Shown here: positions 3,247-33,250 of the stretch, one piece after another
Position numbering within the stretch: the first letter of the stretch is position 1
Layout of the letters: every line of letters begins with the position of its first letter
DNA from: a virus
Taxonomy: Duplodnaviria; Heunggongvirae; Uroviricota; Caudoviricetes
Virus record (IMG/VR): IMGVR_UViG_2896595138_000002
Span: 1 to 34,565 of that record
Strand: one strand, 5' to 3'
DNA: 34,565 bases
Notes under the pieces: model-generated
Databases searched by the model: none
Told to the model about the DNA's origin: nothing
What the model saw: only the letters and a program-made list of their open reading frames with translations
Translations under genes and position numbers: made by a program

Positions 3247-3306
3247 TCCTCACGCTCCATAAACGACAAAACCGCCCGGAGGCGGTTTCACATAAAACAT
3301 TTTGCA

Positions 3307-3954
3307 TCAACGACCAATCACCACAACCTGACCACCATCCCCTTCATCTGCCGTGCTGATCTCCTGAGAAACCACGCGTGACCCCACGCGCATTTCACCG
3401 TACAGAACAGGCAGAACATTGCCCTGGGCAACCATGTTATCCAGTGAGGAGAAATAGGTGTTCTGTTTGCCGTTATCTGTACTTGCTGCCGTGGGCGTCC
3501 TGGCTTTCGGTGCCAGCATCTGCGCCACTCCGCCCAGGATCATACTGGCCCCTGCCGCATACATGCCCGATACAGCCGCGGCACCCAGCCAGCCCACAGG
3601 GTTCCACCATGCCACCGCAATCAGCGCCGCCCCCAGCACCACCTGAAGCACACCGCCGCTTTTAGCTCCCGCCAGACGCGGCACGATGTGGATCACGGCA
3701 CCATTTGCCAGCGGCTCATTAAGACGGGCAGACAATTCGGTTTCACCTGCATCACGCCCGGCAATCCGTACCTGATACCAGCCGTCACTCAGTTTCTGAC
3801 GAAATGCCGGGACCTGTGTGGACAGCGCCCGGATGGCTTCAGCCCCCGTTTTTACACGAAGGTCGATGCGGCGGCCAAATCGTTGTAAATCCCCGTAAAG
3901 GCAGATGCGTGCCATGCCCGGTGACGCCAGAGGGAGTGTGTGCGTCGCTGCCAT
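3307..3954 (-). CDS. I: Lambda I-like tail assembly protein
   Basis: 215-aa ORF MAATHTLPLASPGMARICLYGDLQRFGRRIDLRV...GGQVVVIGR, gpI-like. Confidence 0.85.
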   Translation of the reverse strand: MAATHTLPLASPGMARICLYGDLQRFGRRIDLRVKTGAEAIRALSTQVPAFRQKLSDGWYQVRIAGRDAGETELSARLNEPLANGAVIHIVPRLAGAKSGGVLQVVLGAALIAVAWWNPVGWLGAAAVSGMYAAGASMILGGVAQMLAPKARTPTAASTDNGKQNTYFSSLDNMVAQGNVLPVLYGEMRVGSRVVSQEISTADEGDGGQVVVIGR

Positions 3955-4594
3955 TTGTCGGTATACCTCTCTCGTTTGCTCAGTTGTTCAGGAATATGGT
4001 GCAGCAGCTCGCCATCACCACAGTAAATGGCGGCATGATTCGGCACCGATGAACCAAAGCAGCACAGCAGCACGTCGCCAGGCTGCGCCTCTGTCAGTGC
4101 GACACGGTAAAAACCAGTCGCCTCCATATTGTCAAGATAGAGATTCTGACCGTTACGCCACCAGTCATCCCCGCGATGAAAATCCGGCATCTCAATCCCC
4201 GCCAGATGATAAGCATCCCGGAACAGCGTGTAACAGTCCGTCACCCCGTGCTCAAAGCGCCGCCCGGTGAGATGCGGCACACAGCGGAACTTGTGAATCG
4301 CCCCCCGGCAGACCAGCCACCACGGCAAATCACTCTGCACCTGCAGCCGCCGGTCAGCCTCACTCAGCCAGGGCAGACCACAGGGATGACTGTGGACCAG
4401 TGCCACAATCTCACCCTGCATCTCTGCCTGCAGCCAGTCTTCCGGCGACATCCGGAAATAATCCTCCGGCTCACCGGAAATATTCACGCAGGGAAAATAT
4501 CTTTCCCCTCCGGCGTGCTTACCACGAAGCCGCACGACTCCGCTGGCGCACATCGCCGGGCGTGCGCCAGAATCGCTGATTCTGTCTGTGTCAT
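3852..4594 (-). pseudogene. K: Lambda K-like tail assembly protein (JAB/MPN + NlpC/P60), frameshifted near codon 29
   Basis: MTQTESAILAHARRCAPAESCGFVVSTPEG from ATG at 4594 continues as GERYFPCVNISGEPE...HSHP... in another frame (ORF 3852..4637). The shift sits at a homopolymer, plus-strand C-run 4505..4508. Confidence 0.75.
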
Positions 4595-4599
4595 GGGAT

Positions 4600-6747
4600 T
4601 TACTGCGAAAGTTTGTTAATGGAAAGGAAGCCGCCAAAGTTGCCGACGTTATTGCGGAACTTACAACCGCTCAGGCATTTGCTGCATTTATCCTTCGTGA
4701 TATCGGACGTTGGCTGGTCATATTCATCCGCGACCGCCGGACCATGATAACCGCACTCATCGCCGCGATAGGTCCAGGTGCAGGTGTTGGCCAGCATGAT
4801 ACGTCCCGGAAAAACAGCGCCGTCCGTTTCCGTCGGCGTGGACAGTACAAAAGAGGCACTCACCGCGCTCAGTTCGCTGCACTGCTCAATGCGCCAGCGG
4901 CTGATCACCTCCTGCTCCGGATCGGCGTCACTGTTTCCGTTGACGAAGTTCACCGCATCCAGAAAACGGGCGTAAACCTTACGCCGGACCACCGTTCCGC
5001 CGACCAGACTCTGCAGATCTTCCGCCATCCCGGTGACCATACCGTACAGGTTAGAAACCGTCAGCGTGGGGCGCGTACTGGTGCCCTTGTCGCCAAGTGC
5101 AGCCAGCTGGTGTTTGTACTCCAGCGTCTCATCTTTATGCGCCAGCAGGGATTTCTCCTGTGCAGACAGCTGGCGACGTTGCGCCGCCTCCTCCAGTACC
5201 GCGAACTGACTCTCCGCCTTCCACAAATCCCGGCGCTGCTGGCTGATTTTCTCATTTGCTCCGGCATGCTTCTCCAGCGTCCGGAGTTCAGCCTGAAGCG
5301 TCAGCAGGGCAGCATGAGCACTGTCTTCCTGACGATCGCCCGCAGACACCTTCACGTCGAACTGTTTCGGCTTTTTCAGCGTCGCTTCATAATCCTTTTT
5401 CGCCGCCGCCATCAGCGTGTTGTAATCTGCCTGCAGAATTTTCCCGTCCTTCAGTGCCTTGTTCAGTTCTTCCTGACGGGCGGTATATTTCTCCAGCGGC
5501 GTCTGCAGGCGTTCATAAGCCTTCTGCGCCTCTTCGGTATATTTCAGCCGTGATGCCTCAGACTCGGCCCAGTCCTTTGCTGCCATCTCTCTGGCCTTTT
5601 CAAGATCGGCCTGCAACGTGCCGGCTGAAAGCCCAAGTTGCGCATTCGCTCTGTCCTCCCATGCTCCCCGGAGATTGGCAAGAAATGCGGATGTTTTACC
5701 GCGCCGGTGGCTCCGGCTCTGATACCACTGCCATTTTTTGTCCGCCTCATCAAAAGCCTTTTCTGCTTTCTCCAGCATTTCCCGGGCAGTGTCCGGGCGA
5801 CCAATATCCAGCACCGAATCCCACATGGATTTGAATGCCCGCGCTGTCCTGTCTGCCCAGGTCTCCAGCGTGCCCATGTTCTCTTTCAGGCGGCGGGTCA
5901 GGTCATCAAACCCTTTCGTTGCGGCCTCGTTCGCCGCCTGCAATGCCCCGGCTTCATCTCCGGAACGCTGCAACTGAGCAACATACGCAATCTGCTCCGC
6001 CGTCACGTTATGGAACTGACGTGCCATCGCTGTCAGTCCCGACGTCGGGTCTGTGGTCAGCTTCCCGAAGGCTTCAGCGACCTTGTCCACCTCCACGCCG
6101 GATGCAGAGGAGAAACGCGCCACACTCTGGCTGATCGCCTCAAACTGCTCACCACCACGCACACCTGCATTCACCAGCGCCGTCAGTGACTCGCTGGTCT
6201 GGTTAAACGTCAGCCCTGCCGCCTGCCCGGCTCTGGACAGGACCAGCATACGATCTGCCGTCAGTCCTGCCTGATTACCGGAAAGGACCAGCGTTTTATT
6301 GAAACTGGACAGGGTTGAGTCCCCCTGATACCAGGCATACGCCAGCGCACCGATCGCCACCGCCAGCGAGGTGGCCCCGACCATCGGCAGGGTGATCGCA
6401 CCGGCAAGCCCCCTGAACATGGGGATCATCCCGCCGAAGGAGTCCTTAACCTGACCACCCTGTTGCAGCAGGATCAGCCACGGACTTTGCCCGCCTGCAA
6501 GCTGCGTGGCCACGTCGGTGAACTGCGCAGGCAGCATACGCATGGCGGCTTTATACTGCCCGACGGAAATCCCCGCTTTCTGTGCAGCCAGCGCCTGTCG
6601 GCTCAGCGACTGTTCAACGACTGCCGCTGTTTTTTTCGCATCACTTTCCGTACCGGAAAAATGACGCCTGACTCTGGCCATCTGCTCGTCAAATCTGGCC
6701 GCATCCAGACTCAAATCAACGACCAGATCGCCTACCGGTTCAGCCAT
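4600..6747 (-). pseudogene. In-frame fusion of lambda H-like tape measure (N-terminal ~560 aa) to the C-terminal ~160 aa of lambda L-like tail protein
   Basis: 715-aa ORF: MAEPVGDLVVDLSLDAARFDEQMARVRRHF... (gpH) switches at ...LAALGDK|GTSTRPTLTVSNLYGMVTGMAED... to gpL C-terminus ending FGGFLSINKLSQ. H C-terminus, all of M and L N-terminus are absent. Confidence 0.8.
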
Positions 6748-20502: not shown

Positions 20503-20810
20503 TGCTGGTTCAGAGTTAAAAAAACTATTATTTTTTTCATATGTTACCGTAATATGTGAGTATCCATCGACTAGACACTAAGCAAAAAAGCTCCCGAAGG
20601 AGCCTTCATTTTCACTTTCTTAAATCTAACGACAGATGGCTAACATTTAAGTATTGTGAAATATTATCAAATGTAATCATCATTGATTTACAAAAGATAC
20701 ATTTTGCCCCGAAAGGATTTCTGTCAGAAACATCAAAAGATGTTGTTCTATACTGAGAACCATGGCAACACGGGCATCTAAAGTGAATATGGTTTGTAAT
20801 ATTTTCTACC

Positions 20811-21023
20811 TCAAAGTGCCACTACATGAACAGCTGCAGGGCCTTTAGGTCCGTTCTCAATACCAAATTCGACTTCCTGATTCTCAGTTAACGTTTTGAA
20901 ATCGTTGCTCTGAATAGCTGAGAAATGCACAAACACATCTTTGCTACCATCTTTCGGCGTGATGAAACCAAAACCTTTTTCAGGGTTAAACCATTTCACT
21001 AAACCAGTCATTTTGTTAGACAT
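20811..21023 (-). CDS. cspI: Cold-shock protein, CspA family
   Basis: 70-aa [70 protein letters not shown]; RNP1/RNP2 motifs. Confidence 0.9.
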
Positions 21024-21083
21024 TATTATTACCTTTTGAAGAAGTTACCCTTAAGATTTCAAGGATTTTGACTCATGGAAGAG

Positions 21084-22348
21084 TGAGGTAGCCTGAGTTT
21101 AACGGACACTCCTTCCTGAAATAGAATGGCATCAGAAGGAGCTAATAATGAGCAGAAAAACCCAACGTTACTCTAAAGAGTTCAAAGCCGAAGCTGTCAG
21201 AACGGTTCTTGAAAATCAACTTTCGATCAGTGAAGGCGCTTCCCGATTATCCCTTCCTGAAGGCACTTTAGGACAATGGGTTACCGCCGCCAGAAAAGGG
21301 CTCGGTACTCCTGGTTCCCGCACGGTGGCTGAACTGGAATCTGAAATTCTGCAACTGCGTAAGGCGTTAAATGAAGCTCGCTTTGAGCGAGATATATTAA
21401 AAAAAAGCAACAGCGTATTTTGCACAGGAGTCGCTGAAAAATACGCGTTAATCGAACAATGGCGACAACAATTTCCCATTGAAGCGATGTGTCAGGTATT
21501 TGGTGTATCCAGGAGCGGTTATTACAACCGGGTACAGCATGAACCCTCAGACAGAAAACAAAGTGATGAGCGGCTAAAACTGGAGATTAAGGTGGCACAT
21601 ATCCGCACTCGCGAAACATATGGAACCCGGCGGCTCCAGACGGAGCTGGCAGAGAATGGCATCATCGTTGGTCGTGACCGACTGGCACGTCTTCGTAAGG
21701 AGCTAAGGCTACGCTGTAAGCAGAAACGCAAGTTCAGAGCGACTACGAACCCGAACCACAATCTGCCAGTTGCGCCAAATCTGCTGAACCAGACGTTCGC
21801 TCCTACAGCACCAAATCAGGTCTGGGTGGCGGACCTGACGTATGTTGCCACACAGGAGGGATGGTTGTACCTCGCTGGCATCAAAGATGTTTATACGTGC
21901 GAAATTGTCGGCTACGCCATGGGAGCGCGCATGACAAAAGAGCTGACAGGTAAAGCCCTGTTTATGGCGCTCAGGAGCCAGCGCCCACCTGCCGGGCTAA
22001 TCCACCACCCTGATCGAGGTTCACAGTACTGCGCATACGATTACCGGGTCATACAGGAGCAGTTTGGTCTGAAAACATCAATGTCGCGTAAAGGTAACTG
22101 TTACGACAACGCTCCGATGGAAAGCTTCTGGGGAACGCTGAAAAATGAGAGCCTGAGCCACTATCGTTTTAATAACCGGGATGAAGCCATCTCAGTAATA
22201 CGGGAATACATTGAGATTTTCTACAATCGTCAGCGTCGTCACTCTCGTCTGGGGAATATCTCCCCGGCAGCCTTCAGGGAAAAATATCATCAGATGGCTG
22301 CTTAAAAAAAGAACAAATGGTAGTGTCCGCTATTGCCAGTACACCTCA
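21084..22348 (+). mobile_element. IS600 copy 2, complete, flanked by 3-bp direct repeat GAG
   Basis: Ends TGAGGTAGCCTGAG... and ...GCCAGTACACCTCA; GAG at 21081..21083 and 22349..22351; 1265 bp. Confidence 0.9.
21148..22305 (+). CDS. IS600 transposase as a single fused OrfAB reading frame (385 aa)
   Basis: A8 run at 21399..21406 (A7 in copies 1 and 3) joins orfA to orfB in one frame: ...DILKKSNSVFCTGVAEKYALIEQWRQQFPIEAMCQVFGVSR...; DDE domain present. Confidence 0.85.
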   Translation: MSRKTQRYSKEFKAEAVRTVLENQLSISEGASRLSLPEGTLGQWVTAARKGLGTPGSRTVAELESEILQLRKALNEARFERDILKKSNSVFCTGVAEKYALIEQWRQQFPIEAMCQVFGVSRSGYYNRVQHEPSDRKQSDERLKLEIKVAHIRTRETYGTRRLQTELAENGIIVGRDRLARLRKELRLRCKQKRKFRATTNPNHNLPVAPNLLNQTFAPTAPNQVWVADLTYVATQEGWLYLAGIKDVYTCEIVGYAMGARMTKELTGKALFMALRSQRPPAGLIHHPDRGSQYCAYDYRVIQEQFGLKTSMSRKGNCYDNAPMESFWGTLKNESLSHYRFNNRDEAISVIREYIEIFYNRQRRHSRLGNISPAAFREKYHQMAA

Positions 22349-22407
22349 GAGTCCTTTTTATTTAAATTTCACATTCAGCGCTAAAAATAATCCGATTTAA
22401 TATTAAT

Positions 22408-23434
<1,027 letters not shown>

Positions 23435-23539
23435 GGATATTTATCAGGATTTATCGGTTTCTGAACCCTAGATATGTTTATCTGTCCCGGCCTGTTGAAT
23501 CAGGCTGGGAAAAGGTAAAGACAATCAAGAGGATTATTT

Positions 23540-23812
23540 ATGGACAATAACACCATTTCTCTACAGGAGTTGCTCGACTGCATTTCCAGGCTTCGGGATG
23601 ATGTAAATGCCCTCACTGTTGCATTTTCATCTCTGGCCTTATCAATTCCCAGAGAACAAATGCAACCAACACTGGCATCGCTCCTGCTTGAATCACGCAA
23701 CCCCAAATGGTCCCAGGAACAACAAAATTCTTTCAAGTGGCTGGCGGCATTACTGGAAGAAAAATATGCTGGTAAAATTACCATTTCGGTGGAGTCTTCA
23801 GAGAATCAGTAA
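23540..23812 (+). CDS. Hypothetical 90-aa protein encoded antisense to the lysis cassette
   Basis: Strong SD (AAGAGG, 7 nt before ATG); predicted helical, non-membrane protein MDNNTISLQELLDCISRLRDDVNALTVAF... Confidence 0.5.
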   Translation: MDNNTISLQELLDCISRLRDDVNALTVAFSSLALSIPREQMQPTLASLLLESRNPKWSQEQQNSFKWLAALLEEKYAGKITISVESSENQ

Positions 23813-24122
23813 TTCTTCCTGGTAGCTTTCCTTTGTAGGTTATCCACACATTCTGCGCCTCTAAAATTATGGGGCGCTTTTCCGGCGACTGCTCATCCCC
23901 TTCACATAACCCGGCAGCAACATCCAGGAAGACCTGTCTGATGCTCATTCTGGCTGCTGCCTCATAAAACTCCAGCGCGGCACCTTCAACACGGTCCAGC
24001 GAGATGTCCAAGTCAAAAATTTCACCGTCAAAGCGTTTTTTGTCCCGTAACGCTAAAGTTACCGTAACTTTATTCTCAAAATTGCGGATCCCTTTCACAA
24101 TCAGTTCATAGTTTTGAGTCAT
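23778..24122 (-). CDS. Hypothetical 114-aa protein between holin and endolysin
   Basis: ATG 5 nt after the holin stop with GGGGAGAG SD; MTQNYELIVKGIRNFENKVTVTLALRDKKRFDGEIFDLDISLDRVEG... Confidence 0.6.
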   Translation of the reverse strand: MTQNYELIVKGIRNFENKVTVTLALRDKKRFDGEIFDLDISLDRVEGAALEFYEAAARMSIRQVFLDVAAGLCEGDEQSPEKRPIILEAQNVWITYKGKLPGRITDSLKTPPKW

Positions 24123-24126
24123 TGAA

Positions 24127-24342
24127 TTACTCTCCCCGTGCAGCCTTACGACGGTCCTCTCTGATTTTGAAATACAGGTTAGTCAGATATGTCAGCAGCC
24201 CAAACAGCCGACTCCCCAGCACGCCTATTGCCGCCCACTGAGACGGGGAAACCCTGTCCAGCAACTGCAGGAACCAGTAGCCCGTTCCCACCGCTGACGT
24301 GGTGTATGACACACCTGTTGTGATTTTTTCCATCTGGTCCAT
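24127..24342 (-). CDS. Class II holin (phage-21 S-type pinholin) with dual-start motif
   Basis: [44 protein letters not shown]...[21 protein letters not shown]; Met1 and Met4 dual starts. Confidence 0.85.
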
Positions 24343-24449
24343 ACCCCGTCTCCCGTTATCCGGAAGCTGACAACAATAAAAAAGCCACCAGTTAACTACT
24401 GATGGCTCTGATAACTCATGCAAGCGTCTCAGACGACCCACTGACACTA

Positions 24450-24853
24450 CCGGTGAGTTTAACGATACCTTCCATTTGACTGGCTCACTTTTTATGATGA
24501 TGCCGGTGCATTTATCTCCAGCACCAGACTTTCTATCTCAACGCCATACGTTGCATTTTTGGTAATATCCGTCAGCGTCAGTGCATTTAGTCCCACTGCC
24601 AGACTGTCTTTTATGGCCTGGAATGCCGGGCCAGTACGATGACGTAGTATCACTCCGGCTCAGTTGCACCACTGACCACCACATCACCTTCTGCTGCAAT
24701 CGCCTGCATCAGGGTATAAGGGGTTATGGCCACCGGACTACCAAACGGCTGCCAGCCCTCTTTCAGTTTATGTGTCAGCTTTTCCGCAAGATCTGACGGC
24801 GGCGCCGCCCTGACAACATCATAGTGTTTAAATGCCATGGTTCTTTCCACCAT
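24450..24853 (-). pseudogene. Small prophage protein (possibly DUF1737-type), apparently frameshifted
   Basis: ORF 24650..24853 (MAFKHYDVVRAAPPSDLAEKLTHKLKEGWQPFGSP...) stops, while protein-like sequence (...[45 protein letters not shown]) continues to 24450 in another frame. Confidence 0.45.
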
Positions 24854-25097
24854 CTGAAAAATAATTCTTTAAAATACCTGACATGTAATACAGAAAAAAC
24901 ACAAAACCATACCTTAAATAAAAACCTGATTATCAAGCAGATATGCATGGATAAACTACAAGACGAGATATAAACCACCCTGCATTTAAATAAACAATAA
25001 ACAACATCAGAAAAATAATTCTGCTCTATGGTTTAATTCAAAAATATCATTTATACTTTTCAGAACATCACCAGAAAGGCATAAACAAGGAAACTAA

Positions 25098-25433
25098 ATG
25101 AAGTGGATTGTGATTGATACAGTTATCCAGCCATCATGCGGAATATCTTTTTCAGTCATATGGAGTAAAATAAAATTAATAATCTGGTATCAATCGGATG
25201 CTTTCTTACCTCCTGAAAGTATATTTACACTGACTCACACAGGCATCATGCTCAATAACAAAGTGCTACCTGTAACCATTTACAACGTAGTACCATTCAA
25301 TAAAACATTCTGGAATTTAATCAAAAACAGCCAGGAATGCCCTACAAATACAGATAACGTATTGAATGAATGCTTTAATAACCGTTGCACTCTGCAAATA
25401 TGTCCTTATGGACTAAAACAACAAAGTCCATAA
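25098..25433 (+). CDS. Hypothetical Cys-rich 111-aa protein in an AT-rich island
   Basis: AGGA SD 6 nt before ATG; six Cys including [26 protein letters not shown]; no recognisable family. Confidence 0.35.
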
Positions 25434-25451
25434 GGAGTTTACTCACATCTG

Positions 25452-25489
25452 ACAAAATCAATATAAACAGCCCCTCCGGAGAGGGCTGG
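25452..25489 (-). terminator. Rho-independent terminator-like hairpin (minus strand)
   Basis: Near-palindrome CAGCCCCTCCGGAGAGGGCTGG followed on the minus strand by TTTATATTGATTTTGT. Confidence 0.45.
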
Positions 25490-26087
25490 AGAGTGGCGCT
25501 ATGTGCCATTGCATGGTGCCGGGTGCCTCCCGGTGAATTCAGTACCAGCACCTGAATCCGCGATTATCCCATATACCTACTCGCTGATTTCCCCTCCGCA
25601 CAGGGGGATTCACCATGCCAGTTTCTTTTAACAAACTCCCGCAAACCAGACAACAGTCAACCGCCTGAATTGTGAAGTATTTAAAAATTTCTCCCGCTAA
25701 CTGATACCCGGCTAACAGTCTGGCGTTTTCTTTTTCAGCAACGGGAAAGCAACAACCACCACACCCGCCACCAGCACACCGTCAGCCAGCACTGACATTA
25801 TCCGGCTGCTGCAATGCCATTCACAAAAACAGTAAGCAATCACTTTTTACCGTAACAGGTGATAATCCAGATATGTATCCTGAGGTGTACTGGCAATAGC
25901 GGACACTACCATTTGTTCTTTTTTTAAGCAGCCATCTGATGATATTTTTCCCTGAAGGCTGCCGGGGAGATATTCCCCAGACGAGAGTGACGACGCTGAC
26001 GATTGTAGAAAATCTCAATGTATTCCCGTATTACTGAGATGGCTTCATCCCGGTTATTAAAACGATAGTGGCTCAGGCTCTCATTTT

Positions 26088-26741
26088 TCAGCGTTCCCAG
26101 AAGCTTTCCATCGGAGCGTTGTCGTAACAGTTACCTTTACGCGACATTGATGTTTTCAGACCAAACTGCTCCTGTATGACCCGGTAATCGTATGCGCAGT
26201 ACTGTGAACCTCGATCAGAGTGGTGGATTAGCCCGGCAGGTGGGCGCTGGCTCCTGAGCGCCATAAACAGGGCTTTACCTGTCAGCTCTTTTGTCATGCG
26301 CTCTCCCATGGCGTAGCCGACAATTTCGCACGTATAAACATCTTTGATGCCAGCGAGGTACAACCATCCCTCCTGTGTGGCAACATACGTCAGGTCCGCC
26401 ACCCAGACCTGATTTGGTGCTGTAGGAGCGAACGTCTGGTTCAGCAGATTTGGCGCAACTGGCAGATTGTGGTTCGGGTTCGTAGTCGCTCTGAACTTGC
26501 GTTTCTGCTTACAGCGTAGCCTTAGCTCCTTACGAAGACGTGCCAGTCGGTCACGACCAACGATGATGCCATTCTCTGCCAGCTCCGTCTGGAGCCGCCG
26601 GGTTCCATATGTTTCGCGAGTGCGGATATGTGCCACCTTAATCTCCAGTTTTAGCCGCTCATCACTTTGTTTTCTGTCTGAGGGTTCATGCTGTACCCAG
26701 TTGTAATAACCGCTCCTGGATACACCAAATACCTGACACAT
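26088..26741 (-). CDS. IS600 OrfB (DDE integrase domain), 3' end frameshifted
   Basis: ORF ends ...ESFWER*, other copies read ...ESFWGTLKNESLSHYRF...; C-run 26089..26091 is 3 long. Confidence 0.8.
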   Translation of the reverse strand: MCQVFGVSRSGYYNWVQHEPSDRKQSDERLKLEIKVAHIRTRETYGTRRLQTELAENGIIVGRDRLARLRKELRLRCKQKRKFRATTNPNHNLPVAPNLLNQTFAPTAPNQVWVADLTYVATQEGWLYLAGIKDVYTCEIVGYAMGERMTKELTGKALFMALRSQRPPAGLIHHSDRGSQYCAYDYRVIQEQFGLKTSMSRKGNCYDNAPMESFWER

Positions 26742-26776
26742 CGCTTCAATGGGAAATTGTTGTCGCCATTGTTCGA

Positions 26777-27079
26777 TTAACGCGTATTTTTCAGCGACTC
26801 CTGTGCAAAATACGCTGTTGCTTTTTTTAATATATCTCGCTCAAGGCGAGCTTCATTTAACGCCTTACGCAGTTGCAGAATTTCAGATTCCAGTTCAGCC
26901 ACCGTGCGGGAACCAGGAGTACCGAGCCCTTTTCTGGCGGCGGTAACCCATTGTCCTAAAGTGCCTTCAGGAAGGGATAATCGGGAAGCGCCTTCACTGA
27001 TCGAAAGTTGATTTTCAGGAACCGTTCTGACAGCTTCGGCTTTGAACTCTTTAGAGTAACGTTGGGTTTTTCTGCTCAT
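26777..27079 (-). CDS. IS600 OrfA
   Basis: 100-aa ORF identical in pattern to copy 1 except L20P (RTVPENQ). Confidence 0.9.
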   Translation of the reverse strand: MSRKTQRYSKEFKAEAVRTVPENQLSISEGASRLSLPEGTLGQWVTAARKGLGTPGSRTVAELESEILQLRKALNEARLERDILKKATAYFAQESLKNTR

Positions 27080-27258
27080 TATTAGCTCCTTCTGATGCCA
27101 TTCTATTTCAGGAAGGAGTGTCCGTTAAACTCAGGCTACCTCAACAGGATGGACTTAGCAATGGCTGCTCCTGGCACAAAGCGGACAGTGATCACCGTTC
27201 TTACGACTACTTTCTGACTTCCTTCGTGACTTGCCCTAAGCATGTTGTAGTGCGATAC

Positions 27259-27282
27259 TTGTAATGACATTTGTAATTACAA
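27259..27282 (+). promoter_or_regulatory. relBE operator-like inverted repeats (TTGTAAT-N-ATTACAA) in the relB promoter region
   Basis: cTTGTAATgacatTTGTAATTACAAg 13 bp upstream of the relB start. Confidence 0.65.
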
Positions 27283-27294
27283 GAGGTGTAAGAC

Positions 27295-27534
27295 ATGGGT
27301 AGCATTAACCTGCGTATTGACGATGAACTTAAAGCGCGTTCTTACGCCGCGCTTGAAAAAATGGGTGTAACTCCTTCTGAAGCGCTTCGTCTCATGCTCG
27401 AGTATATCGCTGACAATGAACGCTTGCCGTTCAAACAGACACTCCTGAGTGATGAAGATGCTGAACTTGTGGAGATAGTGAAAGAACGGCTTCGTAATCC
27501 TAAGCCAGTACGTGTGACGCTGGATGAACTCTGA
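27295..27534 (+). CDS. relB: RelB antitoxin
   Basis: 79-aa ORF MGSINLRIDDELKARSYAALEKMGVTPSEALRLMLEYIADNERLPFKQTLLSDEDAELVEIVKERLRNPKPVRVTLDEL. Confidence 0.95.
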   Translation: MGSINLRIDDELKARSYAALEKMGVTPSEALRLMLEYIADNERLPFKQTLLSDEDAELVEIVKERLRNPKPVRVTLDEL

Positions 27535-27821
27535 TGGCGTATTTTCTGGATTTTGACGAGCGGGCACTAAAGGAATGGCGAAAGCTGGGCTCGACGGTAC
27601 GTGAACAGTTGAAAAAGAAGCTGGTTGAAGTACTTGAGTCACCCCGGATTGAAGCAAACAAGCTCCGTGGTATGCCTGATTGTTACAAGATTAAGCTCCG
27701 GTCTTCAGGCTATCGCCTTGTATACCAGGTTATAGACGAGAAAGTTGTCGTTTTCGTGATTTCTGTTGGGAAAAGAGAACGCTCGGAAGTATATAGCGAG
27801 GCGGTCAAACGCATTCTCTGA
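27534..27821 (+). CDS. relE: RelE mRNA interferase toxin
   Basis: 95-aa ORF MAYFLDFDERALKEWRKLGSTVREQLKKKLVEVLESPRIEANKLRGMPDCYKIKLRSSGYRLVYQVIDEKVVVFVISVGKRER...; ATGA overlap with relB. Confidence 0.95.
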   Translation: MAYFLDFDERALKEWRKLGSTVREQLKKKLVEVLESPRIEANKLRGMPDCYKIKLRSSGYRLVYQVIDEKVVVFVISVGKRERSEVYSEAVKRIL

Positions 27822-27892
27822 ACCAAAGCATGACATCTCTGTTTCGCACCGAAGGTGACACTTCTGCTTTGCGTTGACAGGAGAAGCAGGCT

Positions 27893-28048
27893 ATGAAGCA
27901 GCAAAAGGCGATGTTAATCGCCCTGATCGTCATCTGTTTAACCGTCATAGTGACGGCACTGGTAACGAGGAAAGACCTCTGCGAGGTACGAATCCGAACC
28001 GGCCAGACGGAGGTCGCTGTCTTCACAGCTTACGAACCTGAGGAGTAA
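27893..28048 (+). CDS. hokD: Hok-family type I toxin (HokD/RelF-like), 51 aa
   Basis: MKQQKAMLIALIVICLTVIVTALVTRKDLCEVRIRTGQTEVAVFTAYEPEE, translated directly from the sequence (below the ORF-track size cutoff). Confidence 0.85.
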   Translation: MKQQKAMLIALIVICLTVIVTALVTRKDLCEVRIRTGQTEVAVFTAYEPEE

Positions 28049-28116
28049 GAGACCCGGCGAGTGAGAAATCCCTCGCCACCTCTGATGTGGCAGGCATCCT
28101 CAACGCACCCGCACTT

Positions 28117-28147
28117 AACCCGCTTCGGCGGGTTTTTGTTTTTATTT
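28117..28147 (+). terminator. Rho-independent terminator after hokD
   Basis: AACCCGCttcgGCGGGTTTTTGTTTTTATTTT. Confidence 0.75.
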
Positions 28148-28265
28148 TCAACGCATTTGAAATTCTGGATGGTGCCGGAATAGAATCAAAAATACTTAAG
28201 TAGCGCGCAGGGATAAGAGGGATGGACCCCGAACAGGGGAGTGCTATTTATCTGGAAGGATTCTG

Positions 28266-28517
28266 ATGATGAACATCGAAGAACTGCGTAAAATTTTTTG
28301 TGAAGATGGCCTCTATGCTGTGTGCGTTGAAAATGGAAATATTGTTAGTCATTACCGCATTGTGTGTTTGCAAAAAAATGGGGCTGCGTTAATTAATTTT
28401 GTGGATGCCCGAGTGACGGACGGATTTATCTTGCGCGACGGTGAGTTTGTCACTTCATTACAGGCATTGAAAGAGATCGGAATAAAAGCTGGCTTTTCTG
28501 CTTTTTCAGAAGAATAA
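28266..28517 (+). CDS. rem: Small prophage protein of unknown function (Rem-like position and size)
   Basis: 83-aa ORF immediately downstream of relBE-hokD, as for rem in Qin; identity by position and length only. Confidence 0.5.
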   Translation: MMNIEELRKIFCEDGLYAVCVENGNIVSHYRIVCLQKNGAALINFVDARVTDGFILRDGEFVTSLQALKEIGIKAGFSAFSEE

Positions 28518-28582
28518 ACTCATCTACAATCTTGCGCGGGCTGAACTCCCGCTGAGTAACACCGTGCCACCGGAGAAAACCG

Positions 28583-28861
28583 ATGGCACGCAACGCAAAA
28601 TATTACAATCATGATAATTCGACCGTTCTTGCCCACACGCACGAGCGGTATTCTCACGCATTTAAGTCAGACTGGTACCAGCATCCCTCATGCACTGAAG
28701 AACAGGCCGAATGGCTCATTCAGTGTTACCGCAGGCGCGGATGCGAGGTTAAAAAAGCCCTTAGCCTCGACTACCGTCACTGGATAATCTCCGTCAGGCT
28801 CCCTTACTCCGAACAGCCACCGCGTCCGTCCCGCACATTCCAGCAACGGATCTGGAGGTAA
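28583..28861 (+). CDS. Hypothetical 92-aa protein, stop/start-coupled to the following gene
   Basis: ORF ends TAA 1 nt before the GTG start of the next gene; Cys/His-containing. Confidence 0.4.
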   Translation: MARNAKYYNHDNSTVLAHTHERYSHAFKSDWYQHPSCTEEQAEWLIQCYRRRGCEVKKALSLDYRHWIISVRLPYSEQPPRPSRTFQQRIWR

Positions 28862-28862
28862 C

Positions 28863-29912
28863 GTGCGGGTATTACTTCGACCTGTTCTGGTTCCGGAACT
28901 CGGGCTGGTGGTCCTTAAGCCCGGTCGTGAATCCATGCCGGTATTCCACAATACCCGGTTACTGGTGGAGCCGGAACCGAAAAGCATGCGTAATCTGCCG
29001 TCCGGGGTCGTTCCTGCCGCTCGCCAGCCGCTGGTGGAAGACAAAACATTGCTGCCGTTTTTCAGTAACGCACGGGTGATTCGTGCTGCTGGTGGTGCTG
29101 GTGCATTGTCTGACTGGCTGTTGCGCCATATTAAATCCTGCCAGTGGCCACACGGCGATTATCATCACAGCGAAACCGTCATTCACCGTTATGGTACCGG
29201 CGCAATGGTGTTGTGCTGGCACTGCGACAACCAGCTGCGTGACCAGACATCCGAATCACTCGAGCAACTTGCTCATCAAAACCTGTCAGCATGGATGATT
29301 GACGTCATCGGTCACGCAATAAGCGGTACGCAGGAGCGTGAACTATCTCTGGCTGAATTATCCTGGTGGGCGGTCCGCAATCAGGTGGCGGACGCGCTAC
29401 CGGAAGCGGTATTACGTCGTTCGCTGGGGTTGCGTGCGGAAAAAATCCGCTCAATGTTCCGTGAAAGCGACATCGTACCGGGAGAGCAGACCGCCACCAG
29501 CATACTGAAACAGCGCACAAAAAATCTTGCGCCGCTGCCTCACGCCCACCAGCAACAGAACCCACCACAGGAAAAGACGGTGGTCAGCATTGCCGTTGAT
29601 CCTGAGTCTCCGGAATCTTTCATGAAACGACCTAAACGTCGCCGCTGGGTTAACGAGAAATACAAACGCTGGGTGAAGACACAGCCGTGTGCGTGTTGTG
29701 GTAAGCCAGCCGACGATCCCCATCACCTGATTGGTCATGGTCAGGGCGGAATGGGGACAAAATCTCACGATATTTTCACGCTACCGCTGTGTCGGGAGCA
29801 TCACAACGAGCTTCATGCGGATCCTCTGGCGTTCGAAGAAAAGCATGGTTCTCAGGTTGATTTAATTTTTCGTTTTCTTGATCACGCCTTTGCAACTGGC
29901 GTGCTTGGGTAA
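28863..29912 (+). CDS. ydfU: DUF968-like protein with C-terminal HNH-type Cys/His motif (YdfU-like)
   Basis: 349-aa ORF; ...QPCACCGKPADDPHHLIGHGQGGMGTKSHDIFTLPLCREHHNELH...; sits between rem and rusA/Q. Confidence 0.6.
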   Translation: MRVLLRPVLVPELGLVVLKPGRESMPVFHNTRLLVEPEPKSMRNLPSGVVPAARQPLVEDKTLLPFFSNARVIRAAGGAGALSDWLLRHIKSCQWPHGDYHHSETVIHRYGTGAMVLCWHCDNQLRDQTSESLEQLAHQNLSAWMIDVIGHAISGTQERELSLAELSWWAVRNQVADALPEAVLRRSLGLRAEKIRSMFRESDIVPGEQTATSILKQRTKNLAPLPHAHQQQNPPQEKTVVSIAVDPESPESFMKRPKRRRWVNEKYKRWVKTQPCACCGKPADDPHHLIGHGQGGMGTKSHDIFTLPLCREHHNELHADPLAFEEKHGSQVDLIFRFLDHAFATGVLG

Positions 29913-29924
29913 AAGAGGTGACTG

Positions 29925-30282
29925 ATGCTCATAGATTTGGTTTTACCTTACCCGCCGACGGTGAACACTTACTGGCGACGCCGTGGCAGCACATATTTTA
30001 TCTCGGAGGAGGGAAAGCGTTATCGCCGGGCTGTGGCGCTTATTGTTCGCCAGCAGCGGCTGAAATTAAGCCTGTCCGGAAGGCTGGCGATAAAGGTGAT
30101 TGCAGAGCCACCGGATAAGCGTCGTCGCGACCTGCGACAATATCCTGAAAGCACCGCTGGATGCGCTGACGCATACGGGAGTGTTAATGGACGATGAGCA
30201 GTTTGATGAAATCAATATCGTTCGTGGTCAGCCAGTATCTGGTGGACGTCTGGGGGTGAAGATTTACCCCATAATGCATTAA
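29925..30282 (+). pseudogene. rusA: RusA-like Holliday junction resolvase, frameshifted
   Basis: ORF 29925..30197 (MLIDLVLPYPPTVNTYWRRRG...EPPDKRRRDL) then ORF 30100..30282 (...DNILKAPLDALTHTGVLMDDEQFDEINIVRGQPVSGGRLGVKIY) in the +1 frame; single-base insertion near 30121. Confidence 0.75.
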
Positions 30283-30296
30283 GAGCAGGTCAAAAA

Positions 30297-31118
30297 ATGA
30301 AACTGGAAGATTTACCGAAATACTACTCCCCAAAATCCCCTGGCCTGACCGATGCATCGGCCTCAACGTCAAAAGATGCGCTGAGTATCACTGATGTGAT
30401 GGCCGCGCAGGGCATGACACAGAATCGGGCTGAGATGGGTTTTTCTGCGTTCCTGGGGAAAATGGGCATCAGTATGAATGACAGGGCGCGGGCAACAGAA
30501 TTACTGGCAGATTATGCACTCAGTCGGTGCGATCGTGTGGCGGCGTTGAGAAAACTTCCGGCAGAAATAAAACCGGTAGTGATGCGCATTATGGCTTCGT
30601 ACGCTTTTGAGGATTATGCCCGCAGCGCAGCGAGTAAAAAGCAGTGCCCTTGTTGCTATGGGGAAAAATTTATTGAAAGCATAGTTTTTACAAACAAGGT
30701 CCAGTATCCGGATGGTAAGCCGCCGGTATGGGCAAAGTGTACGAAAGGTGTGTATCCGTCTTACTGGGAAGAATGGAAAAAAGTCAGGGAGGTGGTAAAA
30801 GTTGCCTGTCCGGAGTGTGGCGGAAAGGGTGAGGTTTCCACCGCCTGTAAGGATTGCCGTGGGCGTGGTGTCGCCATTCATCGTGAAGAGTCGGTAAAAC
30901 GTGGTATGCCTGTTATCAGAGACTGCCAGCGTTGTGGTGGTCGTGGCTATGAAAGACTACCATCAACGGAGGCATTTAATGCTATATGCGAGGTGACAAA
31001 CCAGATAACACGCGCGTCATGGGAAAAAACAGTTAAGAAATTTTATGATGCGCTGGTGACCCGGTTTGATATTGAAGAAGCATGGGCTGAGCGGCAGTTA
31101 AAAAAGGTAACTAGGTAA
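30297..31118 (+). CDS. Late-gene antiterminator Q-like protein with DnaJ-type CxxCxGxG zinc-finger repeats
   Basis: 273-aa ORF just upstream of a promoter/terminator pair and tRNAs; motifs CPECGGKG, CKDCRGRG, CQRCGGRG; placement after rusA typical of lambdoid Q. Confidence 0.6.
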   Translation: MKLEDLPKYYSPKSPGLTDASASTSKDALSITDVMAAQGMTQNRAEMGFSAFLGKMGISMNDRARATELLADYALSRCDRVAALRKLPAEIKPVVMRIMASYAFEDYARSAASKKQCPCCYGEKFIESIVFTNKVQYPDGKPPVWAKCTKGVYPSYWEEWKKVREVVKVACPECGGKGEVSTACKDCRGRGVAIHREESVKRGMPVIRDCQRCGGRGYERLPSTEAFNAICEVTNQITRASWEKTVKKFYDALVTRFDIEEAWAERQLKKVTR

Positions 31119-31131
31119 CAAGGTAACAAGG

Positions 31132-31159
31132 TTGATTTTTCCGGAATCTGTGGTAAATT
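31132..31159 (+). promoter_or_regulatory. Candidate late promoter (PR'-like): TTGATT-16 nt-TAAATT with TG extension
   Basis: Motif match 14 bp after the Q stop codon. Confidence 0.4.
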
Positions 31160-31208
31160 CGTCATAACGATGGGCGTTTTATGCCTGACGTTAGAAGAGT
31201 TTCTACAA

Positions 31209-31232
31209 CCCGCCGCTGAGCGGATTTTTTAT
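31209..31232 (+). terminator. Candidate tR'-like terminator (short GC stem + T-run)
   Basis: CCGCtgaGCGG then ATTTTTTATT. Confidence 0.35.
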
Positions 31233-31269
31233 TGCGAAATTAATTACGGACCGTTATTATTCTGCTCCC

Positions 31270-31345
31270 GGCCCTTTAGCTCAGTGGTGAGAGCGAGCGA
31301 CTCATAATCGCCAGGTCGCTGGTTCAAATCCAGCAAGGGCCACCA
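31270..31345 (+). tRNA. ileZ: tRNA with CAU anticodon (Ile2/ileZ-like, or Met)
   Basis: 76 nt GGCCCTTTAGCTCAGTGGTGAGAGCGAGCGACTCATAATCGCCAGGTCGCTGGTTCAAATCCAGCAAGGGCCACCA; cloverleaf folds with a 7-bp acceptor stem and encoded CCA. Confidence 0.85.
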
Positions 31346-31443
31346 TCACAAACCGGCATTAGCTTATCAGGAAGAGCAGACGACACGATAACAGGGTTGT
31401 TGGTGCGGGGCGGGTCCCGATGGCGGTCCATTATCGGTATTCA

Positions 31444-31520
31444 GCGTTGTTAGCTCAGCCGGACAGAGCAATTGCCTTCTAAGCAATCGGTCACTGGTTC
31501 GAATCCAGTACAGCGCGCCA
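31444..31520 (+). tRNA. argN: tRNA-Arg (anticodon UCU), argN/argU-like
   Basis: 77 nt GCGTTGTTAGCTCAGCCGGACAGAGCAATTGCCTTCTAAGCAATCGGTCACTGGTTCGAATCCAGTACAGCGCGCCA; anticodon loop CTTCTAA. Confidence 0.85.
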
Positions 31521-31630
31521 TATTCATTCTTCCAGATTCCTTCCGGCAGAGCCTTATACTGAAATATACTTGGCTCAGGATATTGTTGAAAATATTATAT
31601 GTTTGTCAAAAATAAAAGTTCTGTTAAGTA

Positions 31631-31984
31631 TTGATTGAGTATTTGTTATACGGTCTAATGGTTTTTTCAGCATTAAATATTTATCATTCATATGGTGCGG
31701 GTAGAGTGAATATTGATGAGGCGTCGGGGTGTTTCATCCTTAGGCAGCGTATTGATATAGTCAATGCAGCACGAGCAAAGGCCTTCAGCCGTTTGACAGT
31801 TTTGTTCTGTACTCCTGATCGTCTTTCGGGAAGAGACGTTATTATTCTGAATAGTGATGCTATACAGAGGGTTTGCGATGAGTTCATGGTTGCTAATTCA
31901 GAATTATTTGCTCTTGTTCAGGAGTACAACAGAATAGCCAGGACCTGTGGTATGGATGAACTTCGGATTACTCATCTGGGGTAG
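31631..31984 (+). CDS. Hypothetical protein (117 aa) in the Q/tRNA moron slot, probably 3'-truncated by IS600
   Basis: AT-rich ORF; its stop codon TAG ends 1 nt before the IS600 left end; no recognised family; first in-frame ATG at 31658. Confidence 0.35.
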   Translation: MIEYLLYGLMVFSALNIYHSYGAGRVNIDEASGCFILRQRIDIVNAARAKAFSRLTVLFCTPDRLSGRDVIILNSDAIQRVCDEFMVANSELFALVQEYNRIARTCGMDELRITHLG

Positions 31985-31985
31985 A

Positions 31986-33250
31986 TGAGGTAGCCTGAGT
32001 TTAACGGACACTCCTTCCTGAAATAGAATGGCATCAGAAGGAGCTAATAATGAGCAGAAAAACCCAACGTTACTCTAAAGAGTTCAAAGCCGAAGCTGTC
32101 AGAACGGTTCCTGAAAATCAACTTTCGATCAGTGAAGGCGCTTCCCGATTATCCCTTCCTGAAGGCACTTTAGGACAATGGGTTACCGCCGCCAGAAAAG
32201 GGCTCGGTACTCCTGGTTCCCGCACGGTGGCTGAACTGGAATCTGAAATTCTGCAACTGCGTAAGGCGTTAAATGAAGCTCGCTTTGAGCGAGATATATT
32301 AAAAAAAAGCAACAGCGTATTTTGCACAGGAGTCGCTGAAAAATACGCGTTAATCGAACAATGGCGACAACAATTTCCCATTGAAGCGATGTGTCAGGTA
32401 TTTGGTGTATCCAGGAGCGGTTATTACAACCGGGTACAGCATGAACCCTCAGACAGAAAACAAAGTGATGAGCGGCTAAAACTGGAGATTAAGGTGGCAC
32501 ATATCCGCACTCGCGAAACATATGGAACCCGGCGGCTCCAGACGGAGCTGGCAGAGAATGGCATCATCGTTGGTCGTGACCGACTGGCACGTCTTCGTAA
32601 GGAGCTAAGGCTACGCTGTAAGCAGAAACGCAAGTTCAGAGCGACTACGAACCCGAACCACAATCTGCCAGTTGCGCCAAATCTGCTGAACCAGACGTTC
32701 GCTCCTACAGCACCAAATCAGGTCTGGGTGGCGGACCTGACGTATGTTGCCACACAGGAGGGATGGTTGTACCTCGCTGGCATCAAAGATGTTTATACGT
32801 GCGAAATTGTCGGCTACGCCATGGGAGAGCGCATGACAAAAGAGCTGACAGGTAAAGCCCTGTTTATGGCGCTCAGGAGCCAGCGCCCACCTGCCGGGCT
32901 AATCCACCACTCTGATCGAGGTTCACAGTACTGCGCATACGATTACCGGGTCATACAGGAGCAGTTTGGTCTGAAAACATTAATGTCGCGTAAAGGTAAC
33001 TGTTACGACAACGCTCCGATGGAAAGCTTCTGGGGAACGCTGAAAAATGAGAGCCTGAGCCACTATCGTTTTAATAACCGGGATGAAGCCATCTCAGTAA
33101 TACGGGAATACATTGAGATTTTCTACAATCGTCAGCGTCGTCACTCTCGTCTGGGGAATATCTCCCCGGCAGCCTTCAGGGAAAAATATCATCAGATGGC
33201 TGCTTAAAAAAAGAACAAATGGTAGTGTCCGCTATTGCCAGTACACCTCA
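31986..33250 (+). mobile_element. IS600 copy 4, complete, no target-site duplication
   Basis: Both termini present; flanks AGA / TCA differ; 1265 bp. Confidence 0.9.
32050..33207 (+). CDS. IS600 fused OrfAB transposase (385 aa)
   Basis: A8 run at 32301..32308, as in copy 2. Confidence 0.85.
   Translation: MSRKTQRYSKEFKAEAVRTVPENQLSISEGASRLSLPEGTLGQWVTAARKGLGTPGSRTVAELESEILQLRKALNEARFERDILKKSNSVFCTGVAEKYALIEQWRQQFPIEAMCQVFGVSRSGYYNRVQHEPSDRKQSDERLKLEIKVAHIRTRETYGTRRLQTELAENGIIVGRDRLARLRKELRLRCKQKRKFRATTNPNHNLPVAPNLLNQTFAPTAPNQVWVADLTYVATQEGWLYLAGIKDVYTCEIVGYAMGERMTKELTGKALFMALRSQRPPAGLIHHSDRGSQYCAYDYRVIQEQFGLKTLMSRKGNCYDNAPMESFWGTLKNESLSHYRFNNRDEAISVIREYIEIFYNRQRRHSRLGNISPAAFREKYHQMAA

Follow-up and report, generated by a model that had tools for sequence, protein, structure and literature searches.

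IraL is an IraM-family anti-adaptor of RssB. It co-purifies with RssB, and its activity was characterised by co-purification, two-hybrid and sigma-S stability assays (Hryckowian 2014, mBio, PMC4045071). [quoted passage not shown] The gene is enriched in UPEC and Shigella (PMC4045071), its mRNA goes up after a shift from 23 to 37 °C (PMC12890032), and higher IraL levels are found in a fur mutant (PMC7157518). The identity between IraL and K-12 IraM was given as 58.9% (PMC4045071). In contrast to IraL, K-12 IraM (YcgW), whose structure with RssB is available as 8TWD, binds both domains of RssB. The induction also differs: iraM responds to Mg2+ starvation, whereas IraL acts in log phase without added stress (PMC4045071, PMC10844676). 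In K-12, iraM sits beside e14, while iraL is found at a different genomic site.

STnc_100 is a small RNA that is located 75 nt downstream of stx2 in Stx2 phages (PMC12370729). STnc100 is related to PasD, an sRNA of EPEC prophages, for which the gene order pasD, sialate esterase, pasA/C, holin has been reported (2026 preprint, Storz laboratory). The third type of related element is the lambdoid moron. Morons such as stx, bor and lom have a deviant GC content and their own promoter, are placed between Q and the lysis cassette, and benefit the lysogen rather than the phage.

The locus described here is part of a 34,565-nt stretch of DNA, called the window, which covers positions 1 to 34,565 of the IMG/VR record IMGVR_UViG_2896595138_000002 (Caudoviricetes). 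An earlier note, made from the letters alone, had described an orphan ORF and GC-rich hairpins of unrecognised content. The features it listed are present, but their content is recognisable: the ORF is iraL, known since 2014 (PMC4045071) and labelled anti-adapter protein IraM in RefSeq, and the hairpins match the Rfam family STnc100. In addition, a DUF3927 ORF had been missed, and it had been overlooked that both hairpins belong to one RNA gene. The locus is very probably a prophage accessory element (moron) made of known parts, namely iraL, the STnc100 sRNA and the DUF3927 ORF (Table 1). Because the ORF is the characterised iraL and the hairpins are a known prophage sRNA, both of which had already been described, the locus is ordinary. 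The analysis established sequence identities, family memberships, synteny and selection.

Table 1. Coordinates of the features at the iraL locus and of the tandem sRNA copies in two related loci (window positions unless another locus is named)
Feature	Position	Strand	Basis or remark
IS600 copy A	21084..22349		
Lysozyme	22925..23434	-	late gene
DUF1327/YdfR	23778..24122	-	late gene
Holin	24127..24447	-	late gene
nanS-p (sialate O-acetylesterase) remnant	24492..24853	-	Pfam DUF1737, phrog_143
AT-rich upstream region of iraL	24854..25097	+	244 bp, 27.9% GC
iraL sigma-70 promoter and TSS	25032..25065	+	published 5'-RACE match; predicted hexamers
iraL CDS, 111 aa, IraM-family RssB anti-adaptor	25098..25433	+	identity to CFT073, NF007393, 8TWD
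Rho-independent terminator of the sRNA	25459..25488	-	stem 25488..25468, U-rich tail; terminator scan, folds
STnc100-family sRNA gene (related to PasD), about 190 nt	25459..25647	-	Rfam RF02076
DUF3927/TciB-like ORF, 43 aa, directly upstream of sRNA	25712..25843	-	Pfam PF13064, 95.6 bits
IS600 copy B, bounds the locus	25880..27143	-	repeat analysis, junctions, Pfam HTH_Tnp_1 and rve
IS600 copy C	31986..33250		
Tandem STnc100, E. albertii NBRC 107761 locus	4362..4550, 4826..5019		upstream of iraL
Tandem STnc100, phage vB_EcoS-640R1 locus	3261..3449, 3725..3918		upstream of iraL

Composition and gene order of the iraL slot

The earlier note had taken about 1 kb as an AT-rich stretch, which holds for its first part only. 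The GC content is 31.7% at 24854..25433, below every sampled 580-bp segment of the 50.6%-GC window, but 49% at 25434..25880, which is ordinary for the window. The region upstream of iraL (24854..25097) is near-identical to CFT073 and E. coli 042 by alignment. The ORF itself has an ATG start and a Shine-Dalgarno sequence (AAGGA, 8–12 nt 5' of the start), as the earlier note had read it. Its placement between the minus-strand lysis genes and the IS600 end at 25880/25881 was also confirmed.

The gene order in intact relatives is Q, tRNAs, DUF3927 (or stx), STnc100, iraL where present, nanS-p and holin, which agrees with the proposed lambdoid moron slot, a late-operon accessory position. On the late strand of 042 and CFT073 the order is Q, tRNAs, DUF3927, STnc100, iraL (opposite strand), DUF1737 remnant and holin. 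The iraL locus occupies the slot that stx fills in Stx phages. In phage JLK-2012, nanS-p is intact and iraL is absent, and 171 unrelated bp replace 670 bp corresponding to 24832..25501 of the window. The island therefore has the properties used to define a moron, which are the deviant GC content, the absence from JLK-2012 and the position between Q/tRNAs and holin. Unlike stx, bor and lom, iraL opposes the late operon, and its product acts on host proteolysis control and is neither a toxin nor a surface protein. Its transcription runs against that of the late operon and is therefore independent of Q. The gene is best read as a horizontally acquired, AT-rich cassette that has a sigma-70 promoter of its own. 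The DUF3927/TciB-like ORF and the STnc100 sRNA are located on the late-operon strand and are convergent with it.

The 43-aa ORF upstream of the sRNA belongs to phrog_1470 ("TciB-like", category moron) and to the DUF3927 family proteins of RefSeq. On the other side of iraL, nanS-p is left as an N-terminal DUF1737 piece (24650..24853, about 67 codons) and a C-terminal piece (24492..24653, about 53 codons), which correspond to positions 1–58 and 582–632 of the 634 positions of phrog_143. About 1.5 kb are deleted internally: compared with JLK-2012, positions 929–2419 are missing, and the two BLAST matches overlap by 16 bp at 24619..24634. The same remnant is found in CFT073 and 042, where RefSeq annotates a DUF1737 pseudogene and a "hypothetical protein".

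The CFT073 locus carrying c1429 (WP_000871291.1; iraL at locus positions 23466–23801, potB-island prophage) shares with the window the 5' UTR/TSS region and the synteny of DUF3927, STnc100, iraL, DUF1737 remnant and holin, and the two IraL proteins are identical over 111/111 residues. The window copy is set apart by the abutting IS600 and by a Q/tRNA segment that is inverted away, as well as by two 5' UTR substitutions and a 1-bp deletion in the predicted -35 element. The iraL module (at least 99% identity over at least 80% of the query 24700..25950, megablast) was detected in 1135 of 5426 complete E. coli genomes, which carry iraL under the RefSeq label "anti-adapter protein IraM", and the exact IraL protein is present on at least 1000 contigs. 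The module also occurs in deposited phage records, such as vB_EcoS-640R1.

E. albertii NBRC 107761 and vB_EcoS-640R1 each have STnc100 twice in tandem, one copy with 97% and the other with 77% identity to that of the window. The block of high identity shared by the window and these two loci stops near 25675. From the tandem copies and this block end, iraL appears to travel with its own sRNA copy, and the sequences suggest that recombination within the sRNA genes shuffles iraL/STnc100 modules.

IS600 rearrangement and the state of the window copy

Three IS600 copies are present within 12 kb of the window, with copy B inverted. They were recognised by orfA with HTH and orfB with rve, by ends starting with TGAGGT, and by 98–99% identity to the RefSeq "IS3-like element IS600 family transposase". 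The sequence that follows the insertion point (after 25879) in 042 is located next to copy C in the window, at 31967..31981 of the minus strand, and Q (30297..31118) and the two tRNAs (31270, 31444) point the other way in the window. The displaced flank and the reversed Q and tRNAs indicate that an IS600-flanked inversion severed DUF3927, the sRNA, iraL and the lysis genes from Q/pR'. The segment with Q, the tRNAs, RusA, DUF968 and RelBE (27144..31985) is inverted relative to the lysis side. At copies B and C the target duplications deviate from clean 3-bp repeats, which makes the exact history of the IS600 insertions and the inversion uncertain. None of the 5426 complete E. coli genomes contains the DUF3927/IS600 junction, and this absence, taken with the density of IS600 copies, makes Shigella the probable source of the window prophage.

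Other genes near the IS600 copies were also recognised. A prophage cold-shock gene (ORF 20811..21023, minus strand; Pfam CSD, 108 bits) has a cspA-thermoregulator 5' UTR (Rfam RF01766, 105 bits; region 20780..21131, minus strand). IS600 copy A, with a GAG target duplication, sits in the upstream part of this cspA-type leader, and the end of IS600 makes up the first ~47 nt of the RF01766 match. Copy B is adjoined by a toxin–antitoxin pair (27295..27821, plus strand), consisting of RelB (Pfam, 112 bits) and a RelE/ParE-type toxin, as in Qin-type prophages.

The published 5'-RACE sequence of iraL, ACATCACCAGCAAGGCATAAACAAGGAAACCA (PMC4045071), agrees with CFT073 at every position and with the window at 30 of 32. 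This places the window TSS at about 25065, with an intact -10 element TATACT at 25052..25057. The -35 element is predicted to be TTTACA in CFT073 and TTTA-A in the window, and the 1-bp deletion also shortens the spacer; the assignment of both hexamers is a prediction from the letters. The same deletion is carried by a further iraL locus (L004). It is therefore inherited rather than a sequencing error, and the allele need not be dead.

The sRNA also differs from CFT073 and 042 by two 1-bp deletions, one in the terminator stem, where it produces a bulge, and one in the 5' helix. The window sRNA scores 117 bits compared with 132 for CFT073, and its MFE is -67.4 compared with -74.6 kcal/mol, about 7 kcal/mol weaker. 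Both deletions fall within homopolymers and may reflect sequencing errors. With the Q/pR' drive removed by the inversion and no consensus sigma-70 promoter found upstream of the sRNA, the sRNA and the DUF3927 ORF could be silent in the window prophage.

The window prophage is decayed and rearranged by IS600, and a tentative alternative to an active module is that the whole locus is a decaying relic, with iraL poorly transcribed, the sRNA and DUF3927 silent and little control over sigma-S. This is possible though doubtful. The -35 deletion fits it, as iraL -35 variants of unknown activity exist (PMC4045071), and so do the lesions in the terminator stem and 5' helix of the sRNA, the internally deleted nanS-p, the inversion of Q and the tRNAs away from the locus, and the density of IS600 copies. 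In contrast, the iraL CDS is identical at the nucleotide level in the window, 042 and CFT073, whose allele is functional, the -10 element and TSS region are intact, the -35 allele recurs in L004, and iraL is enriched in Shigella (PMC4045071). The iraL copy of the window is presumably still expressed.

The convergent STnc100 small RNA

A search of the hairpin region against RNA families, which the earlier note had proposed, gave a match to STnc100 (RF02076) with 117.1 bits against a gathering score of 47, covering the full model (positions 1–206). The identification of STnc100 rests on this covariance model, and the MFE z-scores of the sRNA (-0.8 and -1.9) are unimpressive. The MFE fold has the Rfam architecture, in which a long closing helix surrounds three hairpins and is followed by the terminator. 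The hairpin at 25468..25488 had been read as an intrinsic terminator of the minus strand. Consistently, TTTATATTGA follows the stem and the element scores on the minus strand only, whereas the plus-strand sequence after the stem is GAGAGTGGCG, with no T-run. The second hairpin that had been pointed out, at about 25595..25612 (CCCCT/AGGGG), is the first internal stem of STnc100. The published STnc_100 qPCR primers (PMC12370729) match the window exactly.

STnc100 adjoins iraL in all six iraL-type loci that were scanned with Rfam (the window, 042, CFT073, E. albertii, L004 and 640R1), and the scores in the five other loci are 124–138 bits. The window copy is similar to STnc100 and to the related PasD sRNAs of EPEC prophages in the full-length model match, the multi-hairpin fold and the terminator. 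It also has the same lambdoid place, with stx or tRNAs on its upstream side and the nanS-p esterase on its downstream side, except that the 3' end of the window copy abuts iraL instead of nanS-p. In the place of PasA/PasC (24448..24650, minus strand), no Rfam model match and no minus-strand terminator were detected. In 042 and CFT073, RefSeq annotates a partial pseudogene for a plus-strand "hypothetical protein" that corresponds to 25503..25631 of the window. It is probably an annotation artefact, since it lies wholly antisense to STnc100 and has no family match.

The promoter scan detected no consensus sigma-70 promoter within 200 nt upstream of the sRNA. A minus-strand match at 25826..25797 was rejected, as it is inside the DUF3927 ORF and at chance level. 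A conserved block is located upstream of the sRNA at 25670..25706, where candidate hexamers are weak by eye. The sRNA starts 64 nt past the stop codon of the DUF3927 ORF. Given this position and the lack of a consensus promoter, the sRNA may be expressed either from a weak promoter of its own or as part of a transcript from further upstream.

In phage lambda, the terminator tR' follows Q directly and lies no more than about 200 nt from pR'. It is very improbable that the hairpins at the iraL locus are such a late terminator (with a 6S-like leader) or the terminator of iraL itself, without any sRNA gene. On the late strand the locus does follow Q, the terminator stem begins just 35 nt beyond the iraL stop (34 nt between), and no other plus-strand terminator was found for iraL in the terminator scan. 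However, a lambda-type tR' does not fit the distance, as in intact relatives the element is ~1.1 kb from the end of Q and is separated from it by two or three tRNA genes and the DUF3927 ORF. A terminator of iraL does not fit the T-run, which is on the minus strand only, or the occurrence of the element without iraL in JLK-2012, phi296 and Stx phages. Neither explains the match to all 206 positions of the STnc100 model. The element is best read as the STnc100 sRNA gene with its own terminator.

IraL, RssB binding and the cysteine-rich tail

The homology search that had been suggested for the 111-aa protein placed it in the IraM family. NCBIfam NF007393 (IraM) matched residues 1–110 with 162 bits (cutoff 121), and a PDB sequence search returned the crystallised IraM(1–78), 8TWD, with E=9e-32. 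The window IraL is 62% identical to K-12 IraM (66/107 residues), and the two proteins share NF007393, the length class, the contact cluster I for RssB and the C-terminal Cys4 motif. The dN/dS ratio between iraL and K-12 iraM is 0.155, with dS near saturation (1.6). The conservation in related prophages, also raised in the earlier note, was thus positive: the ORF is kept and is under purifying selection. The 5' region of iraL gave no real alignment with that of K-12 iraM; these unrelated upstream regions are in line with the different regulation of the two genes. In E. coli ECGI0523, a disrupted iraM-like gene was observed at the chromosomal position of K-12 iraM (locus positions 4001..4159). 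It looks like a pseudogene, since its frame is open for only 52 codons.

Annotation of the family varies between resources. The full-length family of IraL in PHROGs v4, phrog_4407 (244 bits), is still labelled "unknown function", so the PHROGs annotation lags the literature. Pfam hmmscan of IraL and IraM gave no match even at E<=10. Kti11/Dph3 matches to residues 9–47 in the PDB search (E 0.26–0.9) were rejected as chance level. An AlphaFold2 model from a 10-sequence IraL alignment had a pLDDT of 40.5, too poor for structural support, and for this reason no fold search was made from it.

[quoted passage not shown] In contact clusters II and III, IraL differs from IraM by T13S, L75I, H63N and I64V. 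An intact cluster I with substituted clusters II and III fits the published binding of IraL to the RssB N-terminal domain alone. The window IraL would bind RssB and protect sigma-S from ClpXP, as the literature has shown for the identical protein. Bound by IraL at its N-terminal receiver domain, the adaptor RssB would no longer deliver sigma-S (RpoS) to ClpXP. With this delivery blocked, sigma-S would accumulate, even during exponential growth.

A PmrD-like connector function, in which IraL would act on another two-component regulator such as PmrA instead of RssB, is suggested by the IraM core fold, which superposes on PmrD with an rmsd of 1 Å (PMC10844676), and by a PF11183 tag on IraL homologues in precomputed tables. 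This function is hardly credible, as hmmscan at E<=10 found no PmrD domain (PF11183) in either protein, co-purification with RssB and stabilisation of sigma-S were shown for the identical protein (PMC4045071), and the RssB-contact cluster I is fully conserved. The relation of IraL and IraM to PmrD is one of fold only (PMC10844676).

That the ORF is a chance open frame of AT-rich DNA without a gene product, for which its equal GC content at all three codon positions (about 35%) and a stop-free run of iraL length in 24 of 3000 shuffles of the AT-rich stretch (0.8%) could be quoted, is next to impossible and is refuted, at the level of sequence, by homology and selection, namely the identity of its product to the experimentally studied IraL, the curated HMM score above the cutoff, the solved-structure match, the dN/dS ratio, and 95 family representatives across Enterobacteriaceae with conserved motifs.

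IraL has five cysteines (C14, C81, C92, C97 and C102), one less than the six counted in the earlier note, whose C-terminal cluster is nevertheless real, with four of the five in the C-terminal tail. The motif C81-x10-C92-x4/5-C97-x4-C102-P is the most conserved feature of the IraM family. In an alignment of 32 sequences with 20–62% identity to IraL, the invariant columns are M1, P12, W72, C81, C97 and C102, those nearly invariant are W30, C92 and P103, and C14 alternates between Cys and Ser. The Cys4 tail of these 32 members is kept down to 20–40% identity, from Escherichia to Klebsiella and Franconibacter. The 95 representatives were collected at E<=1e-3 by a profile search of 1.84 billion cluster representatives, and the members looked up were from Salmonella salamae, Citrobacter, Enterobacter, Klebsiella, Intestinirhabdus, Dryocola and Franconibacter. 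A word-indexed search returned Escherichia clusters only.

In the structural work on IraM the tail (residues 79–107) was cut off as proteolytically unstable and was termed less conserved and flexible (PMC10844676). The conservation of the Cys4 tail is not discussed in the IraM and IraL papers (PMC4045071, PMC10844676), and the cysteines go unmentioned in the structure paper. When the Cys-rich tail alone was searched against PDB sequences, only chance matches were returned (all E>0.5). As a reasonable though speculative idea from the conserved pattern, the Cys4 tail might be a metal-binding or redox-sensing module that sets the stability or activity of the anti-adaptor; or, on the same footing, read-through of iraL antisense to STnc100 might couple the two regulators.

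As a discovery the locus has little weight, since iraL and STnc100 had been described and RefSeq annotates iraL; its value is that of a worked annotation. The leads that remain are the Cys4 tail, the co-inherited convergent iraL–STnc100 pair and the expression of the lesioned copy. The invariant Cys4 tail is a cheap and testable lead on how the IraM family is regulated or degraded. The lesions in the promoter and the sRNA and the IS600 rearrangement bear on IraL-dependent stabilisation of sigma-S in the strain of the window, where the stx-equivalent slot of a lambdoid prophage holds a modulator of the host stress response together with an sRNA.
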